A stretch of DNA of 64,000 nucleotides from assembly GCA_000091205.1 (NCBI GenBank), contig AP006499.2, one strand, 5' to 3'. This stretch comes from Cyanidioschyzon merolae. Its lineage: Eukaryota. The translations under genes and the position numbers were made by a program. The notes beneath the pieces were generated by a model that saw only the letters and a list, made by a program, of their open reading frames with translations, did not search any database and had not been told where the DNA came from. Of this stretch, positions 872 to 57,773 are shown in pieces (the first letter of the stretch is position 1; the number at the start of each line of letters is the position of its first letter).

Positions 872-3316
872 TCGTGTTGCCGATCATGAGAAACGCGGTA
901 TTGACCTGTTCTGGAGCGACTGCTCTTTCGGGGCCGCCTGCATTTGCGATCGAATTGTATCAAAGTATTGCTTTGGATTCAATGGCGTTTCTAACTTCCA
1001 GTATGTGTATTGTACTGATGTTCGCGTTCAAGGCAGAAGCGTCCGATATGTTGTTCACTTAAAAAATGTCAGAGTTTTGTAATTTGAGGTTGTGGGTTGT
1101 GGATGTCCTGGGTTGCCTAGTTTTGGAACAAACGAGACATAGTAGCTATTGCTGAGGACTAGGAAAAGAAGAGGAAGCAAAATGGGGAGGCGGTACGACG
1201 AAGGCTGCAATAGTGACATCTGTACGACTATATGGTTTTGTGATCCTGTCGTCTCCAACTTATCAATGATCCGTACAACTGAATGTTCCGAGATGCTTTC
1301 AGAAACCGCGTCGATTCGCACTCCAGGAATGCTTGTAAATCTTGTTTAGGAGTGACGCATTTGCATATCGAGCAGCATCGCGAAGTAACGCACATCGCAA
1401 AAGTGGTATTTCCGGAATAGTTTTTCAAAGAGAATTCTATCAACCACCTGATTTCTCCGAATAGGGAAGCATCAATGAGAAGAGAGCGGGCGGATGCCTA
1501 CCTCAAAATTTACGAGAAATTCCGCGACAACGGTGCTGGACACATGGGTGACGCAGGTATTTACGAATACAGGGCAATGAGTTGCCTCACGAACGCGTGG
1601 AACCAAAAAGTCTTAACCGTCGTCTTTTTCATGATAGGCGCCCCCATTGCGCTCTACGCGGGCCCGTTTCGCGAAGGGATGCGGCCAATCATCGATGTTA
1701 TCAGGAACGATCGCCAGCATGAACAGGAGACCATATCCGTCGACAAGGTCATATCATGCTGGTTAACGAATGACGCTTCTCTTATCCGCGCCACTAGTTT
1801 AAAGCATCGTTCGGTCTTGGGGCTTGTCAACCCATGAGAATTATTTTCAGATATGAGTAAAGACGAAGAGATTTGTTACACCCTCCTCATGTCCTACTCC
1901 ATGCTTTTGGACCGAGAACTCGAACGCAAGGCCGAAATGGAGCTGAATATGGTTTCAATGAATTGTTGGAAAAAATGGCACTGAAGAGCTTCTCCAGATG
2001 CGCTTTATTTCGGTCGATTATGCGAGTTCAAGTCACATTTTGTGAGTATCTACTCTAGATTTCTTTACGCCTTCAAGAAAGTGATTTATCCAGTGCCCGA
2101 TAGAAGCAACAAAGAGGTCACTGGCGAAGACCGGGACACCTACTGGAAGTATAACTTCGATTGCAAGCGTCCGATACCGGCCAAAAGAAGGTATTCACGG
2201 GGCCATCGATGACGACGGGGTATACATATTGGTTCACTTTCAGCGGTTGCAGGCACTTCGTCCTATCCCGTCTCCGTTACCGCCCTTGCCGAAGCACGAA
2301 AACAAGACGAAAGGCCACCGGACGTATCGTCTACACGAGAACGACTTCGTCGTCGGCCTTTACTCCTGGAATACTGACGTGATTACCATCGCTGTACCCA
2401 AGCGTTCGGAAGATTTTACTGAATGTAGCTTACGTCAGAAAGACATGCGTCTTTTTCAGGTTCTCGAGATCGAGGTACTACCGAGAAGCGGGAATCATGA
2501 ATCCGAGGGAGAAAATTGAGACTTTAAATCCAGCAGTGAAAAAGCATCTGGAAGTAATTAGCGAGGTGACGAGCCGACGAGCCGACTCTCAGGCCTGTCG
2601 AGAATTGAAGGAGGTTCGTTTTGTCCACTGGGATTCGCTGTTGAAGGAGTATAAAAGGCCCCGGTGGGCTAGTCTACCTATGAGTCCTTACTGTGGTAGG
2701 CAGCGTTCATTCGCGAACTTTTTCAATGCGTTGAACGCCTCCAGGAGAATGAGAGTCAGTGGCTCATAGTAGCCTGTGCAGCAGGGAGCAGGGCTCCAAA
2801 AAAGCGGACTACGCCAGCTTCGTCGACGAGGACATACAATGCGTGTGCACGGCGTTTTCTTACAATCCCTGTTGATGAGTTCCGAACATCGTGTACACAC
2901 CATGCGCTGGGCTGTATACTTCAGAGGGTGGAGATGGAAAAGTGTCAGCGCAGCCCTGGGGAATTAGCAAAGTACGGACCGCTGACGGAACTGCAAATGG
3001 AAAGAAGGGCGAGAGTTCCTGAACTACTTGCATTGGCAAGTACAACGAATGAGGGCAAGAAACGGATGGGGTTTGTAAATCGTGCCTTTGATGCCGCCAT
3101 CTATTTCAGAAGAAGTGCGGTGCTGGAGAAAGTACCTCCAGAGTCGACATGAGAGAACTTTGTTTGACAACCTCTCAAAGTCGAACTATATGAGACAAGA
3201 TTGGACGCAGGAGTAGGTGGCCGGTCCAAAAAGACGGGGGGCGTCTGCATAGCAATGGGAGACTTCTCGCTAGGGCGGGCTTCTCGCCAGTACTGTACAC
3301 TGCCGGCGTCGTTCGA
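872..3316 (+). mobile_element. Fanzor/TnpB-like element, copy A (degenerate, full length ~2.4 kb)
   Basis: Left-end similarity to copies B and C (…acg|ttcgtgttgccg…aacgcg…) and right-end similarity (…ccagtactgtacactgccggcgtcgttcga). Internal ORF fragments are homologous to the copy B and C proteins. Flanking sequences are unrelated, so this is a transposed copy rather than a segmental duplication. Confidence 0.55.
1475..3152 (+). pseudogene. Decayed Fanzor/TnpB-like nuclease gene of copy A (multiple frameshifts; RuvC-I GADP changed to GLYSW; RuvC-III NRDFNAA changed to NRAFDAA)
   Basis: ORF fragments 1475-1837, 2229-2519, 2497-2769 and 2928-3152 align to copy B segments (…NDFVVGLYSWNTDVITIAVPKRSED…, …[19 protein letters not shown]…, …FVNRAFDAAIYF…). 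The GTGAGT site is conserved at 2042-2047. Confidence 0.5.
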
Positions 3317-3375
3317 GTGTAAAAGGCGGTGGTGGCCTGGAAGCTCGGACTCGTCGTCGGTGAGCACCAGACGTT

Positions 3376-3412
3376 TCCGAACAGTAGCCGAACAGTAGCC
3401 GAACAGTAGCCG
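3376..3412. repeat. 11-bp tandem repeat (ccgaacagtag) x3, ~60 bp beyond the right end of element A
   Basis: Directly visible: ccgaacagtagccgaacagtagccgaacagtagcc. Confidence 0.8.
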
Positions 3413-3847
3413 AGCGGTTCCAAAGCACTGCACCAGTTGCCACAGGAGCGACGCCCAGGCACACGACCGGGTCTCGGGAAACGCTGCAGTTGCTGGTGTA
3501 CGAGCCGGTGCGTACCCGCCGAGAACGAGCTGGTCATCTTTGTCCGTGATCCCGGCACTCAAAGTGCACTCAGGCCCAGGCAGCTATTACCTCCTGTCCC
3601 TGGACGCGCAGGATCGCCGTCGGAGCGTACGCACTGTAAAGCACGTCAAACGTTCAAAGAGCTAGCTACTCGGCAAGTAGTTTACGTTCTTCAATCAAGC
3701 GCGGAGCAGCAGCAGCAGCGTCGAGCGCCTGCCTTTGACAGCGGCCTGTCCGCAGACGACTGCACACGCCTAACCGCTGCCCCTGGTGACCCCCGAGGCG
3801 GGACACTTTGGTGATTCCTGCGCCGGCCGTACTCCCACGGACCTAAA

Positions 3848-10968: not shown

Positions 10969-11035
10969 CCCGTGCCGATCCCGTGCCGATCCCGTGCCGA
11001 TCCCGTGCCGATCCCGTGCCGATCCCGTGCCAGTC
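10969..11035. repeat. 11-bp tandem repeat (cccgtgccgat) x5-6, ~270 bp upstream of the FTR1 start
   Basis: cccgtgccgatcccgtgccgatcccgtgccgatcccgtgccgatcccgtgccagtccagtgccgat. Confidence 0.85.
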
Positions 11036-11303
11036 CAGTGCCGATTGGCGGCTGGCGTGCAGCATGCGCGTGCGCCATCAATATCGGAGGAAGCAGCACG
11101 AGCAGCAGCAGCAGTAGCGGTAGTCGTAGCGTCGTGGGAACCCGCCAACTTGTTCTCCCGCTCATTCTTGCCCGTTGCAGAGGCACGTAGGCGTAGAGAC
11201 TCACGTTTAGGTCGTTTTCTGCAAAAGAACACACTCGGTGTTCTTAAAGTACTCTCACGGGCTTTTGCATACCATCCCCGACCGTGCTAGTCCTTGCTTT
11301 ATC

Positions 11304-30970: not shown

Positions 30971-32062
30971 TCATCCCCCTTCATCAGGTCCACTTGTTGA
31001 GGACGCCGCAGCTTCATCGGCGGCGTCCGTCAGGAAGCTCCAGAGATACGATGGAAGCGATGCACTGGATGCCTCCAGGCAATGCGCGCGCGTTTCTGCT
31101 CGTTCCATGGCTTTCCGCATCACGTTCGCCCGCGGATCCATCGTACCACCGCGCTCGAAAATGTGCATGAGCTCGTCTGTGCCCCCTGCTCCCTGAGAAC
31201 CGACTGAAGACGCAAAGTTCAATGGTAAAAGGAGACGACGATCCAGGGCAACAATCAGTGCACCCCACGGTGTCAGCATAGAAGACTCTCTATCCTGTTC
31301 TGCACTCTTCAAAGTCGACGGCCCCGTGCCCACAAGAGGTCCAATCAAAAACTCCATGAACGGCCAAATACCTAGACCCACATCCACGGTCATCGAACTC
31401 AGGCTTTCCAAGTTTACGCAATGGTCATCCCAGTAGCAATCCCAAATAAGGGGCTCTGAACCAGCTGGTGCGCGTGGAACACCCCATATAACCCGCATCC
31501 GGCTGTAGCGCCCTTGAAGAGCCGAACTCCCGCAGACCAGCACAGCGACGTACCCGTTGAGGGCAATCCATCGCGCAAAATATCCCAGAGAGCCCAGCGC
31601 TGCGCAGCTGGTACCGAAAGCACTGACGAGCGCGATGCCATGGGCGGCGACGCGGTCCAAGCACGTGCGCGTTGCGACGCTAAGCACAAGCGTCATATCC
31701 GTGCCACGCCCTTCCAGGCTCGCCACGAGTTTGTGGGCCCGCACGAACCGCAAACTAGGTGTCGGGGGCAACGCGCTCGGGGGGTCTGCAATACAGTTGG
31801 CGAGCTCACGCAGCTCGCACTCCAGACTGTGCAGTCTGTCCGACTCTGGGGTCTCGTCGCATATTCGCGACACTTGCAGGGCCTCTAAAGACCGGTACAC
31901 CAATTCACTATTCCCATCTATGCAACAGAATACGAATACGTCTGCAACGAGAGCTGCTGCCCGAGGTTCGTAGCCACGTGTGCGCAGAAAACAGAAAAAT
32001 CGCAAACGCAGATCTTCCAGAGACACCGCAACGTCTTCACTTGATGCGCGAATCATGAACAC
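30971..32062 (-). CDS. Hypothetical protein (363 aa), no confidently recognised domain
   Basis: Long ORF flanked by real genes. Composition is protein-like but no family was recognised by eye. Confidence 0.3.
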   Translation of the reverse strand: MFMIRASSEDVAVSLEDLRLRFFCFLRTRGYEPRAAALVADVFVFCCIDGNSELVYRSLEALQVSRICDETPESDRLHSLECELRELANCIADPPSALPPTPSLRFVRAHKLVASLEGRGTDMTLVLSVATRTCLDRVAAHGIALVSAFGTSCAALGSLGYFARWIALNGYVAVLVCGSSALQGRYSRMRVIWGVPRAPAGSEPLIWDCYWDDHCVNLESLSSMTVDVGLGIWPFMEFLIGPLVGTGPSTLKSAEQDRESSMLTPWGALIVALDRRLLLPLNFASSVGSQGAGGTDELMHIFERGGTMDPRANVMRKAMERAETRAHCLEASSASLPSYLWSFLTDAADEAAASSTSGPDEGG

Positions 32063-33123
32063 AGCAGCATAAACTCAAGGTTGCAGCCCAACCTAGATGA
32101 TATCCCAAAGCAGACTTACAAAGTGTAACCAGTCCTACCACAGGGCCGGCACTTGCCCTCCCGAACACAACCCAGACCGAACAATACGAATTGATTGTAT
32201 AGAGCAGGCCGTTGGAGCCGACTACGAGGTTTGGCTTCGCCAATCGCGCGCGCCAGCTCAACGCGCATTCGGTTACCGCAAGTGCATCGCAGAAATCAGA
32301 CAAAGGCGACGTCGCACGGAGCACACTTCAAATGAAACGGCGTCGTGATTGGAGCAGTGCCAGGAGCGCCGCGCACACCTCAGATGAAACGCATTCGCAT
32401 GCGTGTGTGGCTGCGTGTGTTCGGATCGACGAGCGTCAGGCGCACTGCGATGCGCCTCAGTGCAGCAGCAGCAGCAACGAGATCGGCACAAGATTACGAA
32501 GCGATGCGTGCCGGCGCGCGCGTTGTTTCCGAGATCCCAGGCGTCGACGCGTCGATGGTGGTGGTGGTGGCAGGCGGGCGCCTGGATCTCCATGTATGTC
32601 AGGGCGGTACTGCGATGGGCAGTAGCGTCGGCACCAGCGACAGAGCCTATAGCAAGAGATTATTCTACGTGAGTTTCCGATCTACGAGACTTTATTTCAG
32701 CTGCAGCACGATGCGAACACGCATGTGCCAAGGCGGGGTCTTGGACACGTGTCCTTCATCGATCGGTGAGGCGTCTCGCGCGGTGCACGCATCTCGCGAA
32801 GTGAGCGCATCTGGGGGATCAGGCAGTCAATTGGAGCGACGCGCGTGTCGCCGTTGTTGAAGGGAAACGCGATGTTGATCTCTAGTGTGTTGTTCAGCTG
32901 TAAAAGTTGTATTTGCGTTGGAGTCGAACAAAAATATAGTTTTCAATTCATTTGTGTTTCAGCCCTCAAACAAGTCTAGTCAAGTGTTCTTTCGCAGTAT
33001 ATAACAGAAGGGTTCACAGAGCGTTCTTTCTCAAGAAACTGAAAAAAGAAAAGTTATGAAAAGCAAGTCCACGATCCTGGAGGCCCAGGGCCGCCGGCTG
33101 CCAGACAAAAAAAACGAAAAACA

Positions 33124-34026
33124 GTGCCGAGTCCAGAAGAAAAGGAAGAGAAGAAGAACCGAAATGGGGAGGCCCTACGTCGAAGGCTGCAAGAAAGACG
33201 ACAGTACAACGAGATGGTGGTGAAAGCCTTTCTTCTTGGACATATCAAGGATCCGTACAGGGAAAAGTTGCGAGACGCTATCGAAAAACTTGTCGACTCG
33301 TACTCCAAGAGTACTGTCAAGGCGTCGTCAGGACTGATGCATTTGGCGAGGGAGATGTACGAAGACGTGGCGCACATGGAAACGGTCGAGATTCCGGACG
33401 AGTTTTTCGACAAGACGTTTATTCGTCACCTGATGCTTGGTACAGCGGAAACGCGGAGGGAAAATGAGCGGGTTCACGCTCTTCACGAAAACTTCGCGGA
33501 GCTCCGCTTCGAGAGTAATCGATACAGGGGTGATCGGGATATTTAGACAAACGGAGCGAAAAAGCACATCACCAGTCTGAAGTACCATTTGACAGTGAAC
33601 ATCGAACGTTTCGTGATACGGGCCGTGTTTCCACTCTACTCGAGCCTATCTCGCAATGGAAAATGGGCGATTATCAATGACATCACGAACGATCGTAATC
33701 ATGAAGATGAGGTCGAATTTGTCGACAAGAAGGCGGCAAACCAGAGCACGAATGAAGCTTCTGAAATCCGTGCGGTTATACAAGAGCACCGTGCGGTACT
33801 AGGGTTGGCGAATCCAACAGAAAAGATATCAGAGCTGAAAAAAGATAAGGAAAGATGCTATCGCCTCGTCTTACGGTATTTCGCGTTTTCGTTCCGAGAA
33901 CTCGAACCCAAGACCGAAAAGCGTCTGAGTAGGGGAAAAATGCAGAGTCGGAGAGACGGAAGGTTTTTGCAATGGGGAAGCGCTTCAACGTGGTTCCAAT
34001 GTGCAACATTAAGTCACATTTTGTGA
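33124..34026 (+). CDS. Element-encoded N-terminal ORF (~300 codons), conserved in all three copies; single in-frame TAG at 33544 in copy B
   Basis: …EEKEEKKNRNGEALRRRLQERRQYNEMVV…LMHLAREMYEDVAHMETVEIPDEFFDKTF…HENFAELRFESNRYRGDRDI*…HLTVNIERFVIRAVFPLYSSLSRNGKWAIINDITNDRNHEDEVEFVDKK… aligns with copy C (57773-57112, minus strand) and copy A (1475-1837). Copy C has TAT/TAC (Tyr) where copy B has TAG. Function is unknown; it is possibly an N-terminal extension of the nuclease joined by splicing. Confidence 0.4.
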
Positions 34027-34183
34027 GTATCGACTCCGGCGTCCTTTACGGCATCATGAAAGAGATCTGTCGGAGTTCAGTGTCAGCAGGGAGGAATTCA
34101 CCGGCGAAAACCGGGAGACGTACTGGAGGATTAACTTCAATTTCAAACGTCTGGAAGCGAGCAAACAGCAGGTATTCACTGGA

Positions 34184-35473
34184 ATGATCGAAACCGATGG
34201 AGTAGCCTTGCGTGTACACTATCGGCGGTTGAAGAAAGATCGTCCAGTTCCGCCCTCGGCGAACCATGAAGATGAGAAGGAGGCGGATCCTGTGACGCAG
34301 GAGGTGGAGGATAACGACTTTATGGTTGGCGCGGCGAAGCATAAAGATGGGAAGGAGGCGGGTCCTGCGACGCAGGAGGTGGAGGATAACGACCTTGTCG
34401 TTGACGTAACGAAGGATGAAGATAAGAAGGAGGCGGATCCTGCGATGCAGGAGGTGGAGGATAGCCACATTGTCGTTAGCGCTACGAAGCATGAAGAAAA
34501 GAAGGAGGCGGGTCTTGAGACGCAGAAAGTGCATGATGACGACTTTGTCGTTGGCGCTGACCCCAGAAACACAAATATCATCACCATCGCAGCACCGAAG
34601 CGCGCAGAAGATAGTACTGACGGTAACTTGCGTCAGAAAGACATGCGTCTGCTGAGGTTCTCGAGAGCGAGATACGGCCGAGAATCGGGAATCATGAATG
34701 CAAGGAACAAAATCGAGACTTGGAATACAGGAATGAAGGATCTCCTGGAAGCTATGAGCAAGGTGACGAGCCGAGGAGCGGACTTTCATGCTTTTCGGGA
34801 GTTTATGCAAGTTCGTGTTGCTCATTGGGATGCACTGTGGGAGGAGTATACAAAGCCCCGGTGGGCTCGGTTGCGTATGAATTTGTACAGTGGGAAGCAG
34901 CGGGAGTTCGCGATCTTTTTCAATCACTTGAGTGCCCTCAAAGAGGACAAGACTCAAAGGCTCGTAGTAGCATACGGAGCAGGGCGCTGGGCGCCCAAGA
35001 AAGGTACTACGCCAGCTCCAACGACGAGGATGTACAAGTCGTGTGCACGGCGTTTTCTTACAATACCTGTAGATGAGTTTCGAATGTCCTACACACACCT
35101 CGAGCTGGTTTGTACACTTCAGAGGGTCGAGATGGAAAAGTGCCAGCCGAGCCCTGAGGAAATAGCAAAGTACGGACCGCTGACGGAGGAGCAAATGGAA
35201 AGGAGAGCGAAATTTCGTGGACTACTGGCACTGGTGAGTACAACTCCCAACGGCACGAATCGTATGGAGTTTGTTAACCGAGACTTTAACGCCGCTCTCA
35301 ATATAAGGAAATGTGCGGTGCTGGAGACGAGACCTCCAGAGTGGACAAGAGGGAACTTTTTTGGACAACCTCTTCAAGTTCAGTTATATGAGAAGAAGTT
35401 GGAAGCAGCAGTAGGTGGCCGGTCGAAAGAAACTGGAAGGCGTCTGTACGTCAGTTGGAGACTTCTTGGCTAG
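34184..35473 (+). CDS. TnpB/Fanzor-like RuvC nuclease core (429 codons; probable upstream exon 33972-34022 starting MGKRFNVVPMCNIKSHF)
   Basis: RuvC-I is …[23 protein letters not shown] (Asp at 34559-34561). RuvC-III is …[14 protein letters not shown] (35276-35305), exactly the TnpB/Cas12 pattern. A candidate relocated catalytic Glu lies in …[18 protein letters not shown]…, since the canonical RuvC-II position reads VVAYGAGRW. The stop falls 43 bp before the element right end. Note that the ORF-track Met at 34184 is an alternative (TTG) start; the real start is probably upstream. Confidence 0.6.
34280..34579 (+). repeat. 75-bp in-frame tandem repeat x4 inside the Fanzor-like ORF; the last unit encodes the genuine RuvC-I motif
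   Basis: Units begin at 34280, 34355, 34430 and 34505 (gaggcgg(a/g)tcctg(t/c)gacgcaggaggtggaggataacgac…). They encode [75 protein letters not shown] and [25 protein letters not shown]. Copy C has 2 units and copy A has 1. Confidence 0.8.
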
Positions 35474-35516
35474 GGCACGGTTGCCGCCACTACTGTACAC
35501 CGCTGGCGTCGTTCGA
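35330..35516 (+). ncRNA. Candidate omegaRNA (guide-RNA scaffold) region overlapping the 3' end of the Fanzor-like ORF and the element right end
   Basis: This segment is about as conserved at nucleotide level as the rest of the element across all three diverged copies (A 3150-3316; C 55518-55690, minus strand), through and beyond the ORF stop, to …ccactactgtacac(c/g)(g/a)ctggcg at the boundary. In TnpB and Fanzor systems the omegaRNA occupies this position. No expression data are available. Confidence 0.3.
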
Positions 35517-35534
35517 CTTTCGAACGGCGTTCGG

Positions 35535-37271
35535 ATGCGGCGGACTCTTCGGCAGTTTTCGCTCACCATGACACAGGTAGTCAAGAGAAGTGATGCGGAA
35601 ACCGAGTCCTCGTTGGGCGCATACGAGCGCGAGCGACTCGCGCGGATGGAACGGAATCGTATGCTCATGGAAAAGCTGGGTGTCACCTCACTTTCGAACC
35701 GGCTCGAGACGATCACGACTGTTCGGGAGCAAGCCCTCAAACCCATAGGTTACTCGAAACGCACGCCAAAGGCGGAGAAAAGGGCGCGCAATTCTGAAAA
35801 CGAAGTAGACCGTGGAGAGCTGGAGCCACGGCGTCGTTCGCTTCGTGTGCGGGGAATCGCCCCGGCCGGAGCTGGAACATCAGCAGAGGAACCGAAAAAT
35901 AGCCAGCTACAGCTGAAGGAAGAGGAAACATCAAGAGGTCCGTTTTTGGAAGACCAGACGTTCGCAGAGGTTGCCCTAGAAAACTATGGTGCCACTAGCG
36001 AAAGCTCCATGGTCAACGACGACTACGACCGCAGCGACGTAGACGACGTCGATGGTAACAAAGACGACGGAGACCAGAAGAGCTTGTGTACGCGGCGCGC
36101 CAGGTTGTTCCAGCGAGCCTGGTGCGGTGCAATGGCATGCACTTCCTTGTCGACAAGTGAGCATCTCGCGAAGGATCCAAGCCGTTTTCACCGCTGGGTG
36201 CTGGACGAGGCCTCGGGCTTCTTCAAGCTTGTTCCAGCACGTATTTATTCCGCAACCATGCATCCGCGTCTCGATGCATGGACCATGATGGTTGGCGACA
36301 AGGCAGGTCATGTGGGCCTTGCTGTTGTACCACGGGAACGCGTCGCAGAACATGCTGTTCAGGTGCTGTGTATGCGAGTTCACCGCGACACAACCGCTGG
36401 CATGGCACCACGTGCGGGTTCCGCCAACTCCCAACAGCTGCTAACAGTGTCCTACGACGGCAGTGCGCGCTTGCTAGATATCGAAAAACAAACAATTCAG
36501 ACAGTCCTCGTCGATGAGCGAGAACGAATTTTCAAGAGCATAGCGCTCAGTACAGAGAACGACAACGTCTTTTGGACCACTGCCAGCCATCGCTCACTTG
36601 GTGGATTCCTGGTTCGCCACGACCTTCGACAGAGCCAGAAATCGTTCGATGCTTTCGGTATCTCTGACAGCAGAGTCTACTCTGTTAGTTTACAGCATCA
36701 GGGCGCTGCAGGAGCAGTCCCCGGCCATGACGGTCTGCTGGCGGTCACGACGGCGCGAGATGGTGTTCTCATTTTTGATCAGCGTCGAATCGAGACTGGC
36801 GCTACTCGCCGATCAACATCAAAACCGCTTTTTGCTCTACCACACGAGCGCGCAACAACTGCAGCAACTTGGTCTCCGTCGGCGACGCGGCTGCTGACCA
36901 CCTGCTACGATGACTTGCTACGCATATGGCATTACGACGGCAGCGAGTGCTCGCTCGAACACCGCTTTGTACACAACAATCACACCGGTCGATGGGTTAC
37001 GCCTTTTGAGGCATGCTGGGACCCAGCTACGGACCACAAGATTTTTGCGTGTGGATCCATGAATCATAACCCGGTCCATGGCGTGGACCTCTTCCACGTG
37101 GAGCTCAACAAACGATCAGTCTGGAATCGGTTGACTGGCGAGCCCATGACGGCGATTGCGGCTGTCCTGGCCTGGCACCCGGCAGGGCATGCGCTCATAG
37201 GCGGGACTGCATCAGGCAGGGTATATCTATGGGGCGAAGCTCACGGATCTGAGGGCGTCCTCGCAGCGTGA
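35535..37271 (+). CDS. WD40-repeat protein, WDR76/CMR1-like (DNA-damage-associated)
   Basis: N-terminal motif LGAYERERLARMERNRMLMEKLGV resembles the conserved WDR76/Cmr1 N-terminal motif, followed by WD40-like repeats (…VSYDGSARLLDIEKQ…, …LTTCYDDLLRIWHYDG…). The first ATG outside the element is at 35535; 35568 is also possible. Confidence 0.55.
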   Translation: MRRTLRQFSLTMTQVVKRSDAETESSLGAYERERLARMERNRMLMEKLGVTSLSNRLETITTVREQALKPIGYSKRTPKAEKRARNSENEVDRGELEPRRRSLRVRGIAPAGAGTSAEEPKNSQLQLKEEETSRGPFLEDQTFAEVALENYGATSESSMVNDDYDRSDVDDVDGNKDDGDQKSLCTRRARLFQRAWCGAMACTSLSTSEHLAKDPSRFHRWVLDEASGFFKLVPARIYSATMHPRLDAWTMMVGDKAGHVGLAVVPRERVAEHAVQVLCMRVHRDTTAGMAPRAGSANSQQLLTVSYDGSARLLDIEKQTIQTVLVDERERIFKSIALSTENDNVFWTTASHRSLGGFLVRHDLRQSQKSFDAFGISDSRVYSVSLQHQGAAGAVPGHDGLLAVTTARDGVLIFDQRRIETGATRRSTSKPLFALPHERATTAATWSPSATRLLTTCYDDLLRIWHYDGSECSLEHRFVHNNHTGRWVTPFEACWDPATDHKIFACGSMNHNPVHGVDLFHVELNKRSVWNRLTGEPMTAIAAVLAWHPAGHALIGGTASGRVYLWGEAHGSEGVLAA

Positions 37272-53966: not shown

Positions 53967-55439
53967 TTATGACTTGCCATCCGATGCGGAGGCATGCTGC
54001 TGCTGCTGCTGCTGCTGCAGTTGTTGTTGTTGTTGTTGTTGGTTGAGCGCAAACCATTCCGGCCGCCAGCGTGCCGGGATCGCACGATGTGTGAACTGGC
54101 GCGAACCGGCTGCAAACTCTGCCACAGTATGCCCCGCACCGTAGAGACGATATTTGTAGGTGACCAGACCCTCGAGACCAACTGGACCTCGCGCGTGAAT
54201 GCGGTTTGTGCTGATACCCACTTCACTACCGAAACCGTACCGAAAACCGTCGGCGAAACGCGTCGAGGCGTTGTGGTATACGCCAGCGGCATCGACAGCG
54301 GCGAGAAAACACTCCGCTGTGTTCACATCCTCGGTAATGATACAATCGGTATGATGTGAGCCGTGCTCATTGATATGCGAAATCGCCTCGTCCATCGATT
54401 CCACAATCTTGACCGCCAGAATGTAGTCCAGAAACTCGGTATCCCAGTCCTCGGCGGTTGCTCTGCGCAGGAGCTTCTGCTTGGTATCCTGGTTCCGCGT
54501 TGAAACCAGAACCTTTTGGAGATGCGCAAAAGCGTCCTCATCGGCCCGAATTTCCACATTTTGCTTCCAAAGTGCCTGTGCAACCTGCTCCAGAACCCCG
54601 CGTTCCATTGCCAACCGGTGACAGATCAGCGTCTCGAGCGCGTTGCACGCTGCCGGGTACTGCGTCTTCGAGTCGACGACGATGCGCACCGCCTTGTCGG
54701 GGTCGGCATCCTTGTCGATGTAGCAGGCACAGAGGCCGTCCGCGTGACCAAGTACAGGCACCGTTGTATTTGCTTTGATGTACCGAACGAGCGATTGGCT
54801 GCCCCGCGGAACCACAAGGTCCAGGTACTGGTCCAGTTTCAGGAGCTCAGCGATCTCCGCTCGGGTCGTGACCAGCTGCAAAGCGTTCGCGTACCGGGCA
54901 CCGAGCGTGCGTTCAACGCCTAGGCGCATGGCCGCTGTAAGTGCCTGGTTCGTGGCGGTGGCCTCACGCCCGCCTTTCAGCACCACCGCATTCGCAGACT
55001 TGAGACCCAGCGTGCCGATCTGCACGAGCGCGTCCGGGCGCGACTCAAATATCACGCAAATCACGCCAATTGGGCACGTGACTCGGTACAGTTCGAGGCC
55101 GTCCGCTGCAAGCTCTGTCGCCAACGTGACGCGTCCGACAGGGTCCGGAAGCGTGCGCAGCTGGTCGATTCCCGCCAGCAGCGTATCAAACTTTCCAGAC
55201 CCAGAAAGATCGAGGCGTTTCAGTAATACTTTATCGAGTTTGCCTTGTTCGCAAAGTGCCTCAGCCTGACGCAAATCGCTTTGGTTCGCGGCGAGGATCT
55301 CGGCCCGTTGCTCTGCGAGCGCCTCACGAACAGCAAGCAGCGTTCTATCCTTCTGCTGGCTGGAAAGCGTCTGACAAACAAGTGCTGCCTGACGCGCTTG
55401 TTGCGCAACTTGCAAGATACTCTCTGTTTCAGTCGTCAT
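53967..55439 (-). CDS. Gamma-glutamyl phosphate reductase (glutamate-5-semialdehyde dehydrogenase, ProA/Pro2 type) with C-terminal polyQ tail
   Basis: Aldehyde-dehydrogenase-fold ProA signatures (…VICVIFESRPDALVQIGTLGLKSANAVVLKGG…HADGLCACYID…CNALETLICHR…HTDCIITED…YHNASTRFADGFRYGFGSEVGIST…). It ends …QQQQQQQLQQQQQQQHASASDGKS. Confidence 0.85.
   Translation of the reverse strand: MTTETESILQVAQQARQAALVCQTLSSQQKDRTLLAVREALAEQRAEILAANQSDLRQAEALCEQGKLDKVLLKRLDLSGSGKFDTLLAGIDQLRTLPDPVGRVTLATELAADGLELYRVTCPIGVICVIFESRPDALVQIGTLGLKSANAVVLKGGREATATNQALTAAMRLGVERTLGARYANALQLVTTRAEIAELLKLDQYLDLVVPRGSQSLVRYIKANTTVPVLGHADGLCACYIDKDADPDKAVRIVVDSKTQYPAACNALETLICHRLAMERGVLEQVAQALWKQNVEIRADEDAFAHLQKVLVSTRNQDTKQKLLRRATAEDWDTEFLDYILAVKIVESMDEAISHINEHGSHHTDCIITEDVNTAECFLAAVDAAGVYHNASTRFADGFRYGFGSEVGISTNRIHARGPVGLEGLVTYKYRLYGAGHTVAEFAAGSRQFTHRAIPARWRPEWFALNQQQQQQQLQQQQQQQHASASDGKS
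53994..54042. repeat. (ctg)6-ctgcag-(ttg)7 trinucleotide repeat (CAG/CAA on the coding strand, encoding polyQ in the ProA homologue)
   Basis: ctgctgctgctgctgctgcagttgttgttgttgttgttgttg. Confidence 0.85.
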
Positions 55440-55461: not shown

Positions 55462-57773
55462 TTACTTAGCGATGAGCCGCCACGAACGATAAACGTCTTT
55501 CAAAAGAAAAACGCTGTCGCCAGTCGTGTACAGTAGTGGCGACCGGCGCCTTAGACAAACCGTCTCCAACTCAGTGTAGACGCCTCCCCGTCTTTTGGAC
55601 CGGCCACCTACTCCTGCTTCCATTTTTTTCTCATATAGTTCCACTTTGGGAGGTTGTCCAAAAAAATTGTCTCTTGGCAAGTCGTCTCCAGCACCGTACA
55701 TCTCCGTATACTGATAGCGGCATTAAAGTCACGATTCACAAACTCCATACGTTTCTTGCCATCACTGGTTGTGCTAACCAATGCAAGTAGTCCCCGAACT
55801 TTCGCCCTGCTTTCCATTTGCTCTTCCGTCAGCGGTCCATACTTTTTTATATCCTCAGGGCTCCTCTGGCACTTTTCCATATCGACCCTCTGAAGTGTAC
55901 ACCCCAGTTCATGGTGTGTATACGATGTTCAAATTTCATCTACAGGTATCGTAACGAAACGCCTTGCGCACTCCTTGATCGTTCCTGTCGTTGGAGCTGG
56001 CGTAGTCCCTTTTTTCGACGCCCAGCGCCCTGCTCCGTATGCTACAACCAGCCTCTGACTTTCATTCTCCTTGAGGGCACTCAACTCATTGAAAAAATTC
56101 GGAAATCCCCGCTGCTTCTCACAGTATAGATTCATCCGCAGACGAGCCGACCGGAGCTTTGTATACTCTTCCCAAAGTGCATCCCAATGCGCAACATGAA
56201 CTTCCAGGAACTCCCAGAACGCTTCAAAGTCCGCTCCACGGCTCGTCATCTCGCTCAGAGCTTCCAGGTGATCCTTCATTCCATGTCTCGACTTTCTTCC
56301 TCGCATTCATTATACCGGATTCTCGATGGTATCTTGCTCTCGAGAACCTCAAAAGACGCATGTCTTTCTGACGAAAGTTGCCCTCAGTACCATCTTCCGC
56401 ACGCTTCGGTGCTGCGATGGTGATGATATTTGTGTTTCCGGGGTCCGCGCCAACAACAAAGTCGTTCTCCTGCACTTTCTGTGTGGCAGGATCCGCGTCC
56501 TTCTTTTCTTCATGCTCAGCCGCGCCAACGACAAGATCGTTATCCTCCACCTCCTGCATCACAGGATCCTCCTCTTTGTTTTCTTCATCCATCGTTACGG
56601 GCGCAGCCGAGGGCGGAACTGGCCAATCTTTCTTCGACGGCCGATAGTGTACACACAAGGCTACTCCATCAGTTTCGATCATCCCAGTGAATACCTTTTG
56701 TTTGCTCACTTTGAGACTTTTGAAATCGAAGACGTTCTTCCGGTACGTCTCCCGGTTTTCGCCGGTGAATTCCCCCCCTGCTGACACTGAACCCCAGACT
56801 GATCTCCTTCATGATGCCGTAAAGGATTCTGGAATCGATGCTCACAAAATGTGACTTGATGTTGCACACTGGAACGGCACTGAAGCGCTTCCCCATTAGG
56901 AAAGTCTTCCGGTCTAACGACTCTTCATTTTTTCCTCACTCAGATCCATCTCCGCCTTGCGTTCGAGTTCTCGGTCCAAAAATACGAAATCGCGCAGAAT
57001 TAAGGGACCACATCTTTTTCTATGTCTTCTCATATCTGATACCTCTGCTGCTGGATTCGCCAGCCCCAAGACTGCACGTTGCTCTTGTATAGCCTCACGG
57101 ATTGCAGAAGCTTAATTCTTTCTCTTGCGTAATCTCTTCTTGTCAACGAACTCGATCTCATCTTGATACTTTCGATCGTTCGTGATGCCATTGATAATCG
57201 CCCATTTTCCATCGCGAGATAGGCCCGAGTAGAGTGCAAACATGGCGCCTATCATGAAACGTTCGAGGTTTACTGTCAAATGGTTCTTCAGATTCGTGAG
57301 GTACTTCATCGCCCCATAGTCGTAAATATCCCGGTCACCCCTGTATCGAGTACCCTCGAAGCGGAATTCCGCGAAGTTTTCGTGGAGGGCATCCACTAGC
57401 ACATTTTCCTTCAGCGCTTGCGCTGTACCAAGCATCAGTTGACGAGTCAAGGTCTTGTCGAAGAATTCTTCCGGAATCTCGACCGTTTCCATGTGCATCA
57501 CGTCGCCGTACATCTCCCTCGCCAAATGCATCAGCCCTGACGACGCCTTGACAATACTCTTCGAGTCTGAGTTGACACGTTTTTGATAGCATCTCGCAAG
57601 TTTTCCTTCGACGGATCCTTGATATATTTAAGAAGACCGGCGTTCACCACCATCTCGTCGTACTGTCGTCTTTCTTGCCGCCTTCGACGTAGCACCTCGC
57701 CCTTTTGCTTCTTCGCCTTTTCCTGTTCCTCTATATTCGGAACTGGTTCCGTTTTTCTCCGGCAGCTGTCCAC
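55462..57773 (-). pseudogene. Fanzor/TnpB-like gene of copy C, broken by several frameshifts
   Basis: Overlapping ORFs 57531-57773, 57112-57531, 56669-56896, 56224-56787, 55929-56306, 55608-55880 and 55462-55701 (all minus strand) together reconstruct the copy B protein (…[63 protein letters not shown]…, …[17 protein letters not shown]…). The overlaps indicate frameshifts rather than introns. Confidence 0.55.

Follow-up and report, generated by a model that had tools for sequence, protein, structure and literature searches.

A 75-bp coding tandem array of variable unit number beside the RuvC-I motif of the Fanzor1 transposon family CMe-1A in Cyanidioschyzon merolae

The array in the window copies of CMe-1A and the nuclease that carries it

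The stretch analysed here, referred to as the window, comprises 64,000 nucleotides of Cyanidioschyzon merolae (contig AP006499.2, assembly GCA_000091205.1), and our subject is an in-frame array of 75-bp units in a Fanzor-type nuclease gene located in it. BLASTN of the window against itself gave three copies of one element of about 2.5-2.7 kb that are 77-81% identical, and alignment along the CMe-1 consensus protein identified the C. merolae transposon family CMe-1A (Fanzor1) as the source of all three. It may be noted that CMe-1A is the single Fanzor1 family of this alga, with about 150 copies that are about 80% identical to a 3,169-bp consensus encoding a 734-aa Fanzor1 protein; it has no terminal inverted repeats and the class of transposon is given as unknown (Bao & Jurka 2013, Mobile DNA 4:12, PMC3627910). 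The initial annotation of the window placed the array in "the nuclease ORF" (open reading frame), a description that does not hold since three-frame translation shows frameshifts and in-frame stops in copies A, B and C alike, so that all three are pseudogenes. The copies, the array and the catalytic motifs are located as follows.

1127-3328 (approximate), forward strand: copy A of CMe-1A, more decayed than either B or C (self-BLASTN)
32805-35529 (approximate), forward strand: copy B of CMe-1A, a pseudogene with the frame broken upstream of 34184 (self-BLASTN, three-frame translation); the 3′ limit is taken from the terminal palindrome
58057-55494 (approximate), reverse strand: copy C of CMe-1A, a pseudogene (self-BLASTN, three-frame translation)
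34184-35473, forward strand: longest open fragment of copy B, 429 codons, from the last part of the WED-like hairpin through the array and RuvC domain (ORF list, consensus alignment)
34259-34558, forward strand: copy B array, units B1-B4, each running from (A/T)-K/N-H-E to V-V-G-A (Tandem Repeats Finder, unit extraction, mismatch matrix)
34559-34561, forward strand: RuvC-I catalytic Asp codon GAC of copy B, immediately outside the repeated DNA (unit extraction)
56446-56595, reverse strand: two-unit array of copy C, C1 at 56521-56595 and C2 at 56446-56520 (Tandem Repeats Finder, unit extraction)
56443-56445, reverse strand: RuvC-I Asp codon of copy C, directly after the array (unit extraction)
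2289-2357, forward strand: single decayed unit of copy A, 23 codons, PKHENKTKGHRTYRLHENDFVVG (translation, unit extraction)
34964-34990, forward strand: canonical RuvC-II position of copy B, VVAYGAGRW, with Gly/Ala in place of Glu (alignment)
35069-35089, forward strand: alternative catalytic Glu motif, VDEFRMS in copy B (VDEFRTS in the consensus; alignment)
35276-35305, forward strand: RuvC-III motif of copy B (translation, alignment)

Tandem Repeats Finder reports the copy B array at 34260-34558 with a period of 75, 4.0 copies, 82% matches, 0% indels and a score of 388, the top score of any repeat in the window, and the copy C array at 56445-56588 on the minus strand with 1.9 copies and 78% matches. 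The units are head-to-tail, of a length within the 10-100 bp range of minisatellites and divisible by three, free of indels in B and C, and 80-85% identical to one another within an array (mismatch matrix). The array placed by the initial annotation at 34280-34579 is the same one, but its natural register, fixed by homology with the left flank (SA-NHEDEK), lies 21 bp away at 34259-34558. The four in-frame 25-codon units and the peptides quoted for them agree exactly with the frame +2 translation of ORF 34184-35473, and unit extraction bore out the two units of copy C and the one of copy A, the latter decayed. The array lies directly N-terminal to the RuvC-I Asp, as had been proposed, and the extra residues that it was said to insert between the WED-like hairpin and RuvC-I number 75 in copy B.

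Each unit consists of a charged linker of about 12-18 residues followed by the conserved lead-in to RuvC strand beta-1 (xDFVVGA), without a catalytic residue. The repeated DNA of copy B ends at the base preceding the Asp codon, and an Asp-Pro follows only the last unit of an array, as GADPR in copy B and GADPG in copy C; the initial annotation had rightly given the Asp context to the last unit alone. In copy A the unit is followed by LYSW instead of ADPG, and the catalytic Asp is lost (GLYSW context). On counting the residue equivalent to Asp in 83 internal units from 38 distinct arrays, we found Thr in 37, Ala in 31, Val in 11, Met in 4 and Asp in none, and this residue traces to an Ala/Thr of the left flank. 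Therefore, the view of the upstream units as decayed pseudo-active-sites is to be given up: the duplication boundary leaves out the Asp codon and none of the 83 internal units has Asp at that position, which means that these units were never copies of the active site.

Judging by its motifs and predicted fold, the window element encodes a Fanzor/TnpB-type RuvC nuclease, known here as pseudogene copies, and the earlier assignment to this class is upheld by both the fold matches and a set of D/alternative-E/D motifs. The RuvC-I Asp is found in a hydrophobic-strand-G-x-D-P-G motif (GADPG in the consensus and in copy C) of which D and P are nearly invariant in our alignment A1. At the canonical RuvC-II position Glu is replaced, and VDEFRTS follows about 33 residues after VVAYGAG and is conserved out to relatives at 31% identity (alignment and motif inspection); the Fanzor-type rearrangement is described as a canonical RuvC-II Glu changed to Gly/Pro with an alternative conserved Glu downstream (PMC10530073). 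FVNRDFNAA(L/I)NIR, which holds the RuvC-III Asp, is present in copies B and C and in all relatives and is decayed to NRAFDAA in copy A. For the fold search we used the AlphaFold2 model of family protein P0136, which has 71% identity to the CMe-1 consensus over 92% of its length (other family matches 62%-91%). The first seven PDB structures returned by Foldseek are without exception Fanzors solved by cryo-EM (probability 1.00, E 2e-10 to 2e-6) and the next match has E = 0.4, for a model whose mean predicted local distance difference test score (pLDDT) is 58.6 and whose template modelling scores (TM-scores) are 0.22-0.31. Sequence searches were negative: hmmscan of the three ORF fragments of copy B matched none of the Pfam families at E <= 0.1, and alignment A1, searched as a profile against PDB sequences, had no match at E <= 1. 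The assignment to the family therefore depends on the motifs and the fold search. DUF8286, a weak match on the N-terminal part of relatives, is the sole entry in precomputed tables.

In full-length relatives at 31-48% identity the (E/D)DFV(I/V)xxDPG segment occurs once, without repetition, and the linker is shorter; the published CMe-1 consensus protein has one repeat unit (PMC3627910 supplement 3). Since the consensus and these relatives are single-unit, one unit is taken as ancestral and the expansion as specific to the CMe-1A lineage. Repeat-free full-length relatives (P0128, P0142 and P0143 at 43-48% identity, P0144 and P0145 at 31-33%) were found in metagenome and Logan assemblies and are 662-702 aa long and seemingly intact. 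They presumably represent Fanzor1 genes from other Cyanidiales or from related organisms, and would be good candidates for an active orthologue.

Unit number across the family and at single loci

A protein search with the copy B ORF gave 191 family fragments, nearly all from acid hot-spring metagenomes. In the 41 proteins that span the region from the left flank to the Asp, we counted one unit in 8, two in 7, three in 5, four in 14, five in 5 and six in 2 cases, after leaving out six rows in which the left-anchor regular expression also matched within units (KKAGP pattern). To avoid ORF-calling and query bias, 80 loci were fetched with the repeat-free RuvC half as the sole query; these are the best-conserved 80 of more than 517 matches and come from a few hot-spring metagenomes. 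Unit number was then read from how far, in DNA, the Asp codon lies from an anchor in the left flank. This replaced a motif count on the in-frame translation, by which 19 of the 80 loci had gone uncounted and others had been miscounted through frameshifts. The anchor distances in 72 DNA loci are quantised at 78/90, 165, 228-243, 303-315, 387-390 and 464-465 bp. On collapsing redundant loci to about 47 lineages, one unit was found in 6, two in 8, three in 14, four in 9, five in 5 and six in 5, so that about 87% of the lineages are multi-unit and the mode is 3-4 units. Arrays of several units thus predominate, and the consensus, with its one unit, shows a minority state. Variation of unit number, which the initial annotation had seen among the window copies, was confirmed and extends over a range of 1-6 units in about 47 lineages; absent from it were the prior publication of the family as CMe-1A (PMC3627910) and the family-wide presence of the array at one to six units. 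A neighbour-joining tree of the RuvC halves is star-like, with unit numbers scattered over it, and all three close pairs differ in unit number.

As a side observation, the left flank itself (window 34250-34280, compared at all loci) exists in two variants 12 bp apart, a copy B type with an offset of 78 bp and a copy C type with an offset of 90 bp, which mark two sub-lineages; in each of these, unit number varies over its whole range.

Assemblies are well known to go wrong at tandem repeats, and an array mis-expanded or collapsed in the reference was for this reason considered. We regard this as next to impossible, because independent metagenome assemblies give the same counts at the same loci: 4.0 units in L004, a contig that is the orthologue of the copy B locus (98.4% identical over 4.9 kb), and two units in each of the three contigs L001-L003, which correspond to the copy C locus as orthologues (99.2-99.4% identity with at most 10 gap positions). 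Besides, units that are only 80-85% identical are easily assembled without ambiguity. The array is therefore real.

Arrays change in situ after insertion. The loci L006 and L007, from two metagenomes, agree in their neighbouring genes, with a flank identity of 99.1-99.4% over 10.6 kb, but the former has 5 units and the latter 3, and the additional units of L006 are near-identical copies of the adjacent unit. Likewise, L025 with 3 units and L030 with 4 share a 3.3 kb downstream flank at 98.7% identity, and again the additional unit is a near-identical neighbour. A third pair, L041/L055, was rejected as an orthologous polymorphism, the N-terminal halves being only 79% identical and no flank being common. 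The RuvC halves of these two are nearly identical and switch near the array to divergent N-terminal halves, a pattern suggesting that copies have recombined or undergone gene conversion, perhaps with the breakpoint at the repeat.

Arrays are also inherited between copies. The copy B and L005 elements are collinear at 83% identity with four units each; units 1, 2 and 4 of the two arrays are reciprocal nearest neighbours, and position-specific residues are common to both (VDVTK in unit 2, AG-E-QKV in unit 4). A near-intact 752-aa ORF with all catalytic motifs has four units that match those of copy B position by position, so that multi-unit arrays must have been inherited via transposing ancestors. 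A higher-order period of 150 bp in L005 and an alternating ADP/AGP pattern in the copy B array point to a history from one to two to four units by duplication of a dimer. In L005 and L014 a frame of 778-819 codons is open through the 4-unit array with all catalytic motifs kept, and by this measure these multi-unit genes appear near-intact.

Constraint on the array and explanations for its origin

The ratio of nonsynonymous to synonymous substitution rates (dN/dS), calculated in comparisons against L005 as the best-preserved ORF, lies at 0.18-0.32 in the RuvC half and at 0.54-0.75 in the N-terminal half, while the array gave 0.90, 0.94 and 1.39 in three multi-unit comparisons. The array thus appears to evolve roughly neutrally beside a strongly constrained RuvC domain. 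Retention of the VVGA glycine differs between terminal units (31 of 38) and internal ones (30 of 83; Fisher p = 4e-6), which fits with a structural use of only the Asp-adjoining unit. In the AlphaFold2 model of P0136, residues 373-472, made up of the left linker, three internal units and the first half of the last unit, are coil at a pLDDT of about 25, and the predicted strand beta-1 (479-484, FIVGAD) comes from the last unit and ends at D484. The one-unit fragment P0068 is modelled with the same beta-1/beta-2/beta-3 layout at a constant offset of +220, and its linker is already of low confidence; the expansion therefore lengthens a stretch that was predicted disordered before. The copy B array has 31 Asp and Glu residues compared with 11 Lys and Arg.

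The explanation that we consider probable is that slippage or unequal recombination made, and still resizes, an in-frame 75-bp disordered acidic spacer that is tolerated at the WED/RuvC-I junction and has been spread by transposing ancestors. An ancestral Fanzor1 protein would have had one copy of the segment, of which a tandem duplication arose whose breakpoints lay directly ahead of the catalytic Asp codon. By replication slippage or by unequal recombination the array would then have grown and shrunk by 75 bp (25 codons) at a time, never breaking the frame. The unit abutting the Asp alone would supply beta-1 of the RuvC fold, and the upstream units would form an acidic spacer with a net charge of about -4 to -5 per unit, predicted disordered and in almost neutral evolution, in the linker that leads from the last WED-like beta-hairpin to strand beta-1 of RuvC. 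Arrays already present in transposing ancestors would have been inherited by many copies, with further change in situ after insertion. On this explanation the multi-unit proteins are presumably catalytically competent.

Several points weigh against this explanation. The locus sample, being the best-conserved 80 among more than 517 matches, cannot stand in for a count over the whole 10D genome. The dN/dS values of the array come from 49-100 codons, with one partner of each pair a pseudogene, and the Gly test counts related arrays as independent, phylogeny being ignored. The AlphaFold2 models of P0136 and P0068 are only moderate (mean pLDDT 57-59), and low pLDDT in repeats can reflect a poor alignment and is no proof of true disorder. 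The unit-to-unit orthology of copy B and L005 has small margins (10-11 mismatches compared with 11-15 in 75 bp), and B3 is ambiguous. Also, L005 and L014 are without the consensus start Met and the last ~35 residues.

That last point is one of those that would be expected if a functional Fanzor always had one unit and the arrays grew by slippage in dead, drifting copies, as would the pseudogene state of all three window copies, the dN/dS of about 1 in the array, the expansion seen directly at already inserted loci (L006/L007, L025/L030) and the one-unit published consensus. Such growth after death is nevertheless an unlikely account of the whole, given that about 87% of the lineages are multi-unit. 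Copy B and L005, though 17% apart, have a common 4-unit array with position-specific signatures and RuvC halves at a dN/dS of 0.2, which means that much of their divergence took place under selection with the array present. Frames of 778-819 codons open across four units would also be very improbable in long-dead DNA so diverged. The opposite possibility is that the acidic repeats are a selected functional module, a tunable regulator of the nuclease whose copy number is under selection, acting either as a DNA-mimicking autoinhibitory tail by the active site or as a decoy, a DFVVxA beta-strand in competition with beta-1 for its place. Most arrays are indeed multi-unit, also in the ORFs that are best preserved, nearly all arrays stay in frame, a strong net negative charge lies right beside the catalytic Asp, and the hydrophobic xDxVVxx core is kept in each internal unit. 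But a 75-bp unit keeps the frame automatically, internal units have a dN/dS of about 1, often lose the strand Gly and show no predicted structure with AlphaFold2, copy number is scattered over a star-like tree with no favoured value, and distant active-looking relatives are without the repeat; a selected module is hence quite improbable to us. The particular form of it in which the repeats are a copy-number-tunable autoinhibitory element, by way of a DNA-mimic tail or decoy half-strands (xDFVVxA), we hold to be a long shot, though if it were true, slippage would set the nuclease activity of the element and hence its burden on the host. Our preference thus stays with the slippage-resized spacer tolerated at the junction.

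Element ends, neighbouring genes and comparison with known systems

The remaining features of the window concern the 3′ ends of the copies and the host genes beside them, and are listed below.

35508-35529, forward strand: terminal palindrome of copy B (end of copy homology)
55494-55513, reverse strand: terminal palindrome of copy C (end of copy homology)
3308-3328, forward strand: terminal palindrome of copy A (end of copy homology)
53967-55439, reverse strand: glutamate-5-semialdehyde dehydrogenase gene beside copy C, with a protein identical to BAM81960.1 (C. merolae 10D)
35415-37271, forward strand: mechanical ORF of 618 aa, the downstream host WD40 gene, which begins within the 3′ end of copy B

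Homology among the CMe-1A copies stops abruptly right after the short terminal palindrome, which in copy B lies at most ~55 bp beyond the ORF stop. The copy B palindrome, GTCGTTCGACTTTCGAACGGCG, folds as DNA at -11.3 kcal/mol (z = -2.5). Its place is taken by CGTTTTTCTTTTGAAAGACG in copy C and at several metagenome loci, and from this difference the stem seems to be kept by compensatory changes. The 3′-terminal hairpin recalls the ends of Helitrons or of IS200/605-type elements, or else a terminator or guide-RNA element; a search of window 32000-36500 against Rfam, which takes in the conserved 3′-terminal region and the hairpin, gave no match at E <= 0.1. The WD40 ORF overlaps the end of the element ORF at 35473, and the same gene call is made on the orthologous contig L004. 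Copy B thus sits essentially at the 5′ edge of this host gene, whose true start codon is probably further downstream. Copy A is a mosaic, its 5′ half (1127-2263) being about 64% identical to copy B and its RuvC half (2341-3316) about 77%, and could represent a different subfamily or another recombinant. Two 11-bp tandem repeats, both perfect or near-perfect, were also seen: CCGAACAGTAG in 3.4 copies at 3377-3413, about 50 bp 3′ of the end of copy A, and CCCGTGCCGAT in 7 copies at 10969-11045 in unrelated sequence.

As regards novelty, the element, the protein family and repeat-made disordered regions are already known, and the array itself appears undescribed: the word "tandem" is absent from the main text of PMC3627910, the arrays are collapsed in its consensus, and our literature search gave no specific report of tandem repeats in Fanzor proteins. 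We regard the result as a modest new detail of a known family and not as a new kind of system. Its use is that of a natural map of a permissive insertion site in Fanzor1, where the junction of the WED hairpin and RuvC beta-1 takes 25-125 extra, mostly acidic residues; reading frames with 25-125 residues added at this junction appear to be kept open by selection. This may be of help in the engineering of Fanzor/TnpB editors, for domain insertions and linker design. The one-unit picture drawn from the published CMe-1A consensus is corrected, and a hypervariable marker becomes available for typing hot-spring Cyanidioschyzon populations. It also follows that a duplication begun inside a catalytic motif can stay harmless, because only the unit beside the catalytic residue stays constrained.

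The closest known system is CMe-1A of Bao & Jurka 2013 (PMC3627910), identical in family and host. The 734-aa consensus can be aligned over its whole length with the window copies, which have the same RuvC-I, alternative-Glu and RuvC-III motifs and are about as divergent from one another as was published, but the published consensus has one unit whereas most lineages sampled here have 2-6, with variation even at orthologous loci. Among structures, SpuFz (8GKH/9CEU), GtFz (9CER) and PpFz (9CF1) are the best and only significant fold matches; they have the same domain order of a helical REC-like N-terminal half, a WED hairpin and a split RuvC, and the rearranged Glu in common with CMe-1A, although sequence identity is only 12-16%. 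The array itself is most like the repeat-made disordered regions reported in yeast (bioRxiv 10.1101/339663) and in Borg elements (PMC9879509), with which it shares a unit that is a multiple of three, a variable copy number, a charged bias, predicted disorder and a site at a domain boundary. Unlike these, the CMe-1A array lies inside a multicopy transposon nuclease and its unit holds half of a catalytic-motif strand, as a result of which only the terminal unit would be under structural constraint.

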